In this document: positions 1 through 46,300 of the stretch, in pieces | Layout of the letters: each line of letters begins with the position of its first letter | How positions within the stretch are numbered: position 1 is the stretch's first letter | Assembly: GCA_001938485.1 (NCBI GenBank) | Contig: MQRK01175485.1 | Location: 1 to 64,000 of the forward strand | Length of the DNA: 64,000 bases | Origin: Girardia tigrina | Taxonomy: Eukaryota | Direction of reading: 5' to 3' | Translations under genes and position numbers: made by a program | The notes under the pieces: generated by a model | Seen by the model: the letters and a program-made list of their open reading frames with translations, nothing else | What the model was told of the DNA's origin: nothing | Database searches by the model: none

Positions 1-495
1 GGAACCGTCGACCAATCATAAGTGTTTTTAGGTAATCGCGACCGTTGCTAGGGAACCAGGAACCAATCAGAAGCGTTTCTAAGGTGATCGCGACCGTTGC
101 TATGGCGATCGCGACCGTTGCTAGGGAACCGTCGACCAATCAGAAGCGTTGCTAAGGTGATCGCGACCGTTGCTATGGCGATCGCGACCGTTGCTAGGGA
201 ACNNNNNNNNNNNNNNNNNNNNNNNNNNNNNNNNNNNNNNNNNNNNNNNNNNATCGCGACCGTTGCTAGGGAACCAGGAACCAACCAGAAGCGTTTCTAA
301 GGTGATCGCGACCGTTGCTATGGCGATCGCGACCGTTGCTAGGGAACCGTCGACCAATCAGAAGCGTTGCTAAGGTGATCGCGACCGTTGCTAGGGAACC
401 GGGCGGCCAATCGGAAGCGTTGCCAAGATGATCGCGACCGTTGCCATGGTAACCGCGACCGTTGCTAAGGTGATCGCGACCGTTGCCATGGTAAC
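1..495. repeat. GC-rich satellite: 21-bp subunit (GATCGCGACCGTTGCTAWGGY) inside 73-bp units that alternate as two variants (146-bp higher-order repeat)
   Basis: GGAACC recurs at 52, 125, 198 and at 270, 343 (73-bp spacing). Variant B (AGGAACC...GTTTCTA) alternates with variant A (GTCGACC...GTTGCTA). The array runs off the window start and contains an N gap. Confidence 0.95.
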
Positions 496-519
496 CCGGG
501 GGGGGGGTCGGGGCAGAAC

Positions 520-960
520 ATACATTTTTCCCCTACTGGTTGTAATATGTCTTTGAAGCTTCACTTTCTCAATTCCCATCTTTTCTTCTTCTCTGCCAAT
601 GGAGATGTATCTGATGAGAATGGTGAGCGTTTTCATCAGACTATTTCTACAATGGAACGCAGATACAAAGGTAAGTAGAATCCTGCCATGCTTGCAGATT
701 TCTGCTGGAATTTGAAGCGCCATGAACCCGATGCAAAATTCAAACGCCAGGCTAAATATAATTAAATACAAATAAACAATTTGTGTTATAAGTGATTACA
801 AATATTCCAAACATGTTCATACACGTTCCATCATAAAATCGTTATTACAATAAAATGTGACGTGCTACAACCTAACTCATGTTAGAATCGCATCTGATTT
901 AATAAAGATAATCTTATTTCATTGTTGTTTTTTTCAAAAGCTAAAAATTGTTGTACAGTG
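520..960 (+). mobile_element. Chapaev3-like (CMC) DNA transposon, 3' fragment with pseudogenised transposase C-terminus and terminal repeat
   Basis: 538-765 translates as GCNMSLKLHFLNSHLFFF..VSDENGERFHQTISTMERRYKGK*NPAMLADFCWNLKR, a motif string I recognise from Chapaev3-type transposases. The element ends ...TTGTTGTACAGTG at 960 (reverse complement CACTGTACAAC). Confidence 0.75.
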
Positions 961-43312: not shown

Positions 43313-46300
43313 ATGCGGAATGTTCCAGTCGGCCAGTGTATATTCGATGCGATTTTCAGGAATATCAAGAAACGCAAAGGGTAAATTGATTCCATAAGAC
43401 TCAGTCGCGTCATAGAATTGATCGATATTCACTGGTTTATTGCAGATACAAGGTGCTCATGTTCTTTTTCACGCTGCTCATCTACACGACCTTCCACATG
43501 AGCCGCAAGCCGATCAGCGTGGTCAAGTCCATGTTGCATCGCAACTGCACCGAGCGAGCCGCGCACGACCAAATCGTGGTGACGAGCGACAACGACACTT
43601 ACTGCGACTGGGCGCCCTTCGGTCATTACTCGTTGATTTTCGATAATTATTATTAATTCTTTGATTATTAATTATTATGAATTATTTCTGTAATTAATTA
43701 TTATTTAATTATTACTAATAATTATACAATTAATAGTAATATTTTTTTTAATATTTTTATATTAATTTTAATAATAAATATTATTAGTTATAATTATTTC
43801 TATTATAATTATTATTATTATTAATAATAATTTTTATGATTATTAATTATTATTAATTATAAAAATTATTATTAGTTTTCATTTTATAAATTATAATATT
43901 AAATTTTAAATTAAATTAATAATATTTAATATTTATATTAATTAATAATAATTATTATTATCAATTATTATTAAATTATAAATATTAATAACTAAATTAA
44001 TAATTTTTTATTTATTAAAAATAATTATTATAAATTATTTGTTATTATTTTATTCTATTTTTATTAATAATAATTATTTATAATATCACTATTAGTTATC
44101 AATTTAATTTATAATAGTTATTTTTATTTTTTATTATTTCTAATAGTTATAAAATTAATAATAATATTTTTTTATATTTTTATATTAATTTTAATAATAA
44201 ATATTATTAGTTATAATTATTTCTATTATTATTATTGATTATTAATAATTTTATGATTATTAATGATTATTAATTATAAAAATTATTATTAGTTTTTGTT
44301 TTATAAATTATAATATTAAATTTTAAATTAAATTAATAATATTTAATATTTATATTAATTAATATTAATTATTATTATCAGTTATTATTAAATTATAAAT
44401 ATTAATAACTAAATTAATAATTTTTTATTTATTAAAAATAATTATTATAAATTATTTGTTATTATTTTATTCTATTTTCATTAATAATAATTATTTATAA
44501 TATCACTATTAGTTATCAATTTAATTTATAACAGTTATTTTTATTTTTTATTATTTCTAATAATAATAATAATTATCATTAATTATTAATATCAATAATA
44601 TTTTAAAATTACTATTAGTTATTATTAATTTTATTTTCAATAAGTATTTTTATTAATACTATTTTAAATATTATTTTTATTTTATGTCAGTGCTGTCCAA
44701 CTTCGGTGAAATGGCGAAAAAAATCTTTATTCCGCGGGCCGCATACCAAAAAATTAGTGTTTCTATTTATTTTTAAGGTCAAAATTTTGAATAATCTTTT
44801 CAAGTGATCGATGGTTTACTATTTCACATGGAATTACAAATGTTCTACTCAAAATATGTACCCTGCAGAACAACTTATTCCGCTAATTAAGCGAGTAATC
44901 GAATAAGCTGTCCCACAGGAACATAAATGTCCCAAACTAGCCTAGTGCAGAATTAGACGAATTTGGTGTAAAAAGAATAAAAGAACGAAACGGATGAACA
45001 ACTTTTAAAACTTTATTGAGTCAATAGTGAAAATTATTAACCTGTAGGTACAACAGTTCCCAGCCAGTAAAGAATTAACACGTAGAACCATCAGTCTCCA
45101 GTCGATTATCGCGTGAGCTGGTACACAGTTTCCAATAGATTGTTGAGCGAAATGTTTCTTGGCCGTTTGCTTTTTTTCTTATTCGACTTCTATTTTTTCT
45201 TAACTATTTGAGTCCTTGAAAACGGTTTCGAAGGGTATAAAGATCGTCTAAACCGAGACTTTGATTGCCTGTCGGCGGTGTAATAATTGTACTGACGATT
45301 TCTAATTAGAAATTTTTAATTTCTAATTGATATTTTATTTCTAATTGATACTACTAAAGCGGCTGAAATCTGTGCTGTTTTGCAACATTTTCTTTATTTC
45401 TTCGACATCTGTGCTTGTTTTTTTTTAAATCGTAAAATATTTTAAAATCAACAATAAGAAAGCAACACATAAAATCACAGACAATAAAAAAAACTATGTA
45501 CATTCACAAGAGGTCAAAAATAACAAACACCATCCGTTTACAAAAGTGAGGTTCACATACCCGAATAAAAAGACATTTTTTGTCTTGAAAATATTTAAAA
45601 TCATAAAACAGAAAACGGAAAACAAATATCGTTCATTACACTATTTATTTCATTAATAATAATAATTAACAAGTAAACAAAAATAACTAATCAAATATTA
45701 ATTCTTTGGGCACTGTTAGTCTTTTAAATATCGCCATTGGTTTACATTTGTTCCATCGGCAGTTACAGTTGATATTACTGTGAAATTATATTTTTCATTT
45801 CCGGTTGTTTCGATCAGAATATCTTTTTTCCTATTTCCTCAACTGTCCTTGTACCCGGAATATCGGAACTAACAGAAACTTCATCCATATTCCCAAGATG
45901 CTTCCAATCGATATCTCTCTCTTTATCTTTAATACAAAGTAAAATTGATTCTTTTTTTTCTTCCCAATCAGCTGGCAACGATTGTCCGACTGAAGTTACT
46001 GCTCTCATGCTCAAATTATTTCTTTCATAAATCTTGTGCACCAACCATTCGTTCCTTTACAATTTTCTATATTAAAATCAAATTTTGCCATTTTTTTCCT
46101 CTTTCATCAACTGTCCTTGTACCCGGAATATCGAAACTAACAGAAACTTCTTTCAGTTCATGTGGTAACCACATATCGAGTTTACTGACGAATCCAAGTT
46201 TCTTTAAATGACTTCCAACACTTGATTTTGATATTTCCAGAGTCTCTGCAACTTCTCTTGTCGTCANNNNNNNNNNNNNNNNNNNNNNNNNNNNNNNNNN

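Follow-up and report, generated by a model that had tools for sequence, protein, structure and literature searches.

A tandem array of motifs that resemble binding sites of the transcription factors RFX and NF-Y occupies the first 495 positions of the 64,000-nucleotide stretch of Girardia tigrina DNA analysed here (the window, contig MQRK01175485.1). It raises two questions, namely what kind of sequence carries the array and whether the host factors are likely to read it. Positions 1–537 almost certainly represent a terminal inverted repeat (TIR) of a Maverick/Polinton-derived element, and the locus has the following features.

1–537, unstranded: outer part of the right TIR, very probably of a Maverick/Polinton-derived element; the reverse complement of 451–537 matches the partner end, and the arms of complete copies face each other
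1–495, plus strand: subterminal array; its 21-bp units bear RFX-type half-sites and are joined with 31-bp CCAAT units into 52- and 73-bp blocks
203–252, unstranded: 50-N assembly gap, whose flanks overlap by 22 bases and so yield an apparent 146-bp period
440–453, unstranded: perfect X-box (GTNRCC-N2-RGYAAC; consensus from the accessible part of PMC10530576)
482–495, unstranded: outermost perfect X-box, starting 56 bases short of the terminus (median in the family 78)
10–18, 61–69, 134–142, 352–360 and 405–413, plus strand: five RRCCAATSR boxes, with one CCAAC variant at 281–285
496–510, unstranded: shortened C-run/G-run dyad, a longer GC hairpin in other copies
523–537, minus strand: terminal 15-mer (10,884 exact genome copies, control 1); the element begins AGTAG when read inward
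538–543, unstranded: 6-bp target-site duplication GGTTGT, with an identical hexamer outside the partner end
538–765, plus strand: 3′ portion of an older multi-copy transposase-like reading frame split by the element; uninterrupted in 11 of 11 paralogues

An element end and its family

The partner (left) end of the window copy lies inverted on contig C208029, where positions 1–87 are identical to window 451–537 at 87 of 87 bases. This contig also carries the upstream half of the interrupted frame and the hexamer GGTTGT. It was found with a pattern predicted from the empty sites, which gave one match, as did the reversed control pattern. All 11 fetched paralogues of the 538–765 frame continue through the site without an element, and in 5 of 5 intact paralogues tested the flanks overlap by 5–6 bases, corresponding to the target duplication at the window locus. 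The 44-residue piece of the interrupted frame has no match in Pfam. Because the contig begins inside the element and the interior of the window copy is unassembled, this copy may be gene-less. Its two ends (451–537 and C208029:1–87) are identical and have a private shortened junction; the polymerase-bearing relatives differ (dS ~0.26). Such identity suggests either homogenisation of the arms at each replication or a recent insertion.

The array has 2,870 candidates in the genome, of which 40 were scored. Fetched copies run from the array through the GC dyad to one common end, beyond which the sequences are unrelated. If ends are paired, the count of the terminal 15-mer corresponds to at least about 5,400 elements. 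Target duplications of 6 bp flank nine of nine two-ended copies, that is, the window copy and eight others of 1,965–8,518 bp; six are perfect (the window locus and five more) and three agree at 5 of 6 positions, and L102, in which the left terminus is deleted, was excluded from the count. The TIR is ~2.1 kb in C196640, and left and right arms are 84–100% identical. Family ends read AGTAG(G) and do not contain the exact (AGT)2 motif; AGTAG is common to seven full-size Mavericks of the same genome.

The defining features of Mavericks are TIRs, 6-bp duplications, AGT- or AG-repeat ends, and polymerase, integrase, and capsid genes (accessible parts of PMC8097293, bioRxiv 10.1101/2023.08.22.554363, and PMC6431247). 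The family has the TIR, the 6-bp duplication, an AG-type end, and the polymerase, but no integrase or capsid gene was located inside the elements mapped; it is therefore classed as derived from Mavericks and not counted among the autonomous ones. The original prediction named an ordinary internal repeat of a known transposon as one case that would tell against it. In form this is what the array is, a subterminal part of a Maverick-type TIR, and the RFX/NF-Y half of the prediction survives as a proposal about the element's own regulation. Elsewhere in the window, 43644–44685 is very AT-rich and contains a 417-bp tandem duplication.

The array and its candidate readers

Most of the motif inventory first reported for the array holds. 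GTTGCTA occurs at 12 places, always followed by one of the three tails described for it, TCGCGA recurs 11 times, CCAAT boxes are recurrent (five RRCCAATSR in 1–413 and the CCAAC variant), the 21- and 73-bp periods are real, and both of the 14-mers said to be clean X-boxes are perfect. The latter are the sole matches to GTNRCCNNRGYAAC in the 64 kb, where 0.01 are expected, and 0 of 100 shuffles equal their count. Further features are 52/53-bp units, the 50-N gap, and the element end at 537. Taken alone across the whole window, the CCAAT motif is not enriched over shuffled sequence (10 vs 6.4 expected; 11 of 100 shuffles reach 10). Single units were shuffled as well, because tandem copies are not independent; in 20,000 shuffles an X-box arose in 0.5% and a half-site together with a CCAAT box in 0.06–0.12%, figures that carry no correction for the choice among possible motifs.

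RFX proteins recognise the X-box GTNRCC N0–3 RGYAAC and the monomer site GTTRCY, which are conserved across fungi and animals according to the accessible part of PMC10530576. The array motifs match both of these as well as the CCAAT consensus. The host encodes RFX domains, one of which is close to that of human RFX1 (E 2.5e-32). In the genome, GTTGCCATGGYAAC has 33,974 strand matches (control 2), which amount to ~28,000 sites if the first 100 matches are typical, since palindromic sites are counted twice. X-boxes placed 20–140 bases before an element end give 13,184 genome matches (control 0). Of 15 termini chosen without regard to the motif, 14 have an X-box no more than 160 bp away; the same holds for 37 of 46 that were chosen through the polymerase or the inner arm, some of which are chance matches to the end. 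The distance from CCAAT to GTTGCTAGG is 32–33 bases in 30 of 62 cases, which we take to be the MHC-II spacing, and 54 in 17 of 62.

Unit variation was compared across 566 units from 67 arms, with 29 common types (present in three or more arms); the units are not independent. The left half-site GTNRCY is kept in 28 of these 29 types, among which five core letters never change, and private changes do strike its letters. For the left half-site plus GG, there are 2 shared and 33 private variants vs 34 and 90 in the flanks (nominal p 0.006); once the three fixed letters of the right half-site are added, the figures are 32/52 and the signal is gone. The right half-site is broken in 19 of the 29 types. 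The homotypic RFX/NF-Y array first proposed remains a candidate: its motifs fit the published consensus, the host has an RFX1-like domain, and shared variants spare the left half-site, but the full X-box is kept in only 10 of the 29 common unit types.

Contigs of runs with four organism labels cover 29 of 29 bins of 253–537. The 21 differences listed for them leave both perfect X-boxes and the CCAAT cores at 354 and 407 untouched, but they leave 454–481 untouched as well; a half-site is broken by one of them, and at two positions the window copy itself departs from the rest. Among runs holding the stretch (contigs, with RNA status mostly guessed), the shares are 0.14–0.21 outside organism A. 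In the inner arm of one family copy (L011:6600–8000), words containing ATCGAT are clustered, with 9 strand matches vs 0.3 in 1,000 shuffles; they resemble the insect DRE motif and are not independent, because they are part of a short internal repeat.

A search of 80 metagenomic relatives of the polymerase gave four scattered lone X-box matches and no array, and IMG/VR gave 25 single X-box matches and no clusters. No X-box is present in the TIRs of the seven full-size Mavericks. Its absence from these other Maverick TIRs and from the 80 metagenomic relatives marks the array as family-specific. Two metagenomic contigs with inverted repeats around a polymerase (L294 and L303) were rejected as examples of the TIR–polymerase–TIR structure of the family. 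The former (L294:42–6148) has 313-bp inverted repeats with CAG…CTG ends around broken PolB frames and is possibly a cut-and-paste transposon that carries a Maverick polymerase.

Published work bears on these motifs and is cited here from the accessible portions of each paper. RFX5 and NF-Y co-occur widely in human cells, NF-Y binds LTRs (PMC4889920), and the X–Y spacing matters at MHC-II promoters (PMC4381081). Like the MHC-II X–Y module, the array combines an RFX-type site with a CCAAT box at a fixed distance (PMC4381081, PMC4889920); unlike that module, it shows no CRE/X2 site, is repeated inside a mobile element, and resides in a non-vertebrate host. In a planarian, piRNAs repress Polintons, and open promoters are enriched in CCAAT boxes (PMC10558129). 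A literature search found nothing on insect RFX and PCNA.

Use of the array by RFX and NF-Y has about an even chance of being real. Only slightly less probable is that neither factor reads it and that it is a slippage-amplified palindromic unit or a site for a protein encoded by the element or its helper, an outcome that would affect only the enhancer or origin step proposed below and is compatible with the rest. The mostly degenerate right half-site and the lack of arrays in other Mavericks fit this alternative, dyads may arise readily near replicon ends, and motif presence alone did not predict regulation at planarian promoters (PMC10558129, accessible part). It accounts less well for two different canonical motifs standing together in one unit and for the X-box near nearly all termini chosen without the motif. 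The purines before CCAAT, which vary through all four RR pairs, also speak against it, but transition bias predicts the same.

Layout of the long copies and competing identities

The longest complete copies (C196640, 7,710 bp; C246418, 7,749 bp; C243178, 8,518 bp) consist of an arm of ~2.1 kb, ~3.6 kb of polymerase frames, and a second arm that starts at the polymerase 3′ end. The enclosed frames match PF03175 and PF02945 (protein-primed family-B polymerase) in relatives of the window copy, whose own interior is unassembled, and motifs A, B, and C are present in natural stretches of the polymerase. One such stretch of 443 residues has 6,007 candidates in the genome, of which only about 30 were mapped; among the 94 long matches listed, identity is 71–100%. 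Database relatives are 47–58% identical, the named ones being mostly arthropod proteins, and the closest virus-labelled match is the PolB of Ladona dragonfly adintovirus (53%). These polymerase matches first suggested an insect host; one host protein has a trematode as its best named match (48%), with vertebrates not far behind and nothing at a stricter cut-off, a weak fit to a flatworm. Purifying selection acts on the family polymerase: all 990 pairwise comparisons of 45 distinct copies give a dN/dS below 1 (median 0.24; median dS 0.26). The enzyme was therefore required during the spread of the family, although stops are absent from only 13 of the 45 stretches.

Gene content was searched in 62 family loci with the non-polymerase proteins of two full-size Mavericks. 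Capsid and ATPase queries had no match in these loci. The integrase queries gave two weak matches (27–28%), one outside its element; for the other, in L072 (27%), the position relative to an element could not be established, and none was placed inside one. The same queries do find all three genes in other Mavericks of the genome. None of the 95 listed family-polymerase contigs is among the 125 listed capsid contigs, compared with 5 of 61 other polymerase contigs, and none is among the 18 listed ATPase contigs. One locus (L113), where the arm adjoins a polymerase of a different class, was not counted with the family. A subfamily has an extra 202-residue frame convergent with the polymerase (L110:2650–3255, also L095, L186, L198, and L202), for which Pfam gives no match.

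The family is probably a polymerase-only, helper-dependent kind of Maverick. A considerably less probable account is that of an ordinary Maverick family in which full-length members with the same TIR were broken up in the assembly, the polymerase-only copies being inactive remnants of deletion. The assembly is indeed fragmented (255,254 contigs), and since arms break contigs a full-length member could be hidden; a small share of copies was mapped, and most polymerase copies contain stops. Yet the polymerase end passes into the arm in one continuous alignment at 10 of 23 loci (the other 13 being truncated, interrupted, or unmatched), a junction thus common to copies that stand at the median dS given above. 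The listed family-polymerase contigs do not overlap with those of capsid or ATPase, and in the full-size elements examined the TIRs are short and different, and the polymerases share only 29–38% identity with that of the family.

Less likely still is a DNA transposon of the cut-and-paste type that captured a polymerase and has long TIRs with internal repeats (Foldback/Galileo-like, or a hAT with 6-bp duplications). It would suit the long repetitive TIRs and the very high copy number, which is unusual for Polintons; the accessible part of PMC3014272 gives fewer than 10 copies in Anolis. Against such a transposon, the AGTAG ends are shared with the true Mavericks of the genome, a dN/dS of 0.24 is not expected of a passenger polymerase, and no transposase was seen inside the elements examined.

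Two further identities are hardly credible. Helitron or Helentron 3′ ends, which would fit the subterminal tandem repeats and a GC hairpin ~25 bases before a CT-containing end (in other copies, probably what suggested a Helitron in the first place), were rejected for the family, since the same end stands inverted on both sides and 6-bp duplications occur in 9 of 9 copies, whereas Helitrons have asymmetric ends and are not known to make a target duplication. A nucleosome-length higher-order repeat in a host satellite, whether centromere-like or phasing, was one of the original prediction's readings and is wrong for this locus; it fits the 21- and 73-bp periods but not the short, dispersed arrays (under ~600 bp), always bounded by the same terminus. 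The 146-bp repeat itself falls away: it arises solely when the gap is closed on the 22 bases common to 181–202 and 253–274. Positions 35–175 and 253–393 differ at 1 of 141 sites, and the self-match is 0.55 at lag 146 vs 0.77 at lag 73. In 67 other arms, second-neighbour CCAAT spacings are 146 in 1 of 44 cases and 124–126 in 22 of 44, so a 146-bp period is not a property of the family.

Full-size Mavericks, known systems, and a proposed route

Capsid genes give 127 matches in the genome, most of them stop-free. Seven full-size Mavericks with readable TIRs (C234723, C197927, C220222, C224481, C188483, C238657, and C222732) were reached through ATPase and capsid searches. They are ~14–17 kb long, have TIRs that are 95–100% identical, and look young. 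Their arms are short (about 200–450 bp) and end in AGTAGT, and one of the elements has 12 of 16 terminal bases in common with the polymerase-only family. The two that were scanned contain integrase (with a phospholipase-A2-like domain), capsid, ATPase, and adenovirus protein-X-like frames. As candidate parents all seven were rejected, none having the family arm or polymerase. Eight further stretch pairs checked for full-size elements gave no TIR pair. Family arms beside some full-size Mavericks point away from them and are separate insertions.

Polintons are mostly portrayed as elements of low copy number that carry the complete set of genes. Kapitonov and Jurka are said to have described, in 2006, non-autonomous Polinton derivatives with a deleted interior between retained ends. 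The gene-less family copies of 2–5 kb fit such derivatives; unlike them, the long form keeps a selected polymerase, and a parent with the same polymerase was not found. Geminivirus alphasatellites and phage satellites encode their own replicase and obtain other functions from a helper. The family seems to work similarly, with helper functions likely borrowed, but the enzymes are unrelated, the borrowed function would be integration, and it is not a member of either group.

The following comparisons are with the accessible portions of the sources cited. Like animal Mavericks/Polintons (adintoviruses), the family has long TIRs, AG…CT ends, 6-bp duplications, and a protein-primed PolB with an HNH/EndoVII-like domain (PMC8097293; PMC8502044; bioRxiv 10.1101/2023.08.22.554363). 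Unlike animal Mavericks of 13–25 kb, its long copies measure 7.7–8.5 kb, with integrase, ATPase, and capsid not found in the elements mapped, and its copy number is at least about 5,000. The TIR of ~2.1 kb contrasts with 46–1,447 bp in vertebrate Mavericks, and the end motif is AGTAGG vs the Maverick (AGT)2. The PolB-only segments of Drosophila Vesanto virus and bidnaviruses are likewise linear DNAs of a few kb with inverted ends and a PolB homologue as the main gene, but they belong to free multipartite viruses, whereas the family element is integrated, with Maverick-type ends and duplications (PMC8363768).

The family may have originated by copy-back, in which the left 2 kb would have been duplicated onto the polymerase 3′ end and replaced all other genes. 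The element would then replicate as linear DNA, primed at its termini by its own polymerase, and would be integrated by the integrase of a resident Maverick (the helper) that reads the shared AGTAG end and leaves the 6-bp duplication. Gene-less derivatives of 2–6 kb would use polymerase and integrase in trans. The distant polymerase of a helper probably cannot substitute, which would explain the selection on the family polymerase. Through its predicted X-box and CCAAT sites, the array may recruit host RFX and NF-Y and serve as a putative enhancer ~1.6–2.1 kb upstream of the polymerase frame or as an auxiliary origin bound by host factors.

Taken together, a high-copy Maverick-derived TIR, polymerase-only long copies, a likely borrowed integrase, and an array that may recruit RFX and NF-Y form a reading that is likely correct. 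It amounts to a polymerase-only Maverick derivative of very high copy number, for which a predicted RFX/NF-Y array is a plausible addition. The boldest extension is doubtful: a Maverick satellite, that is, a one-gene linear replicon with a selected polymerase and no full-length parent, which would parasitise the integrase of unrelated Mavericks and use the RFX and NF-Y array of its TIR as a self-switch. If this were true, the ~28,000 perfect X-boxes it would have seeded would be enough to titrate RFX or rewire its targets.

A selected polymerase-only form at thousands of copies would show that a satellite and its helper can divide replication and integration between them, and it would ease study of the proposed protein-primed transposition model. 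A TIR built of RFX and NF-Y motifs would be a concrete candidate for the host link that switches on Mavericks, and in this genome element ends will dominate the output of any scan for RFX motifs. A search of literature listings showed no paper on polymerase-only Mavericks or on RFX arrays in TIRs.

Two individual copies bear separate mention. In one (L106:1642–5596, contig C225650), the right arm is reduced to ~15 terminal bases and the 6-bp duplication is still perfect; integration may need no more than the terminus, or else the arm may have been lost afterwards. In the other (L063:3093–8203, contig C229336), a gene-less family copy sits inside the polymerase gene of another Maverick.
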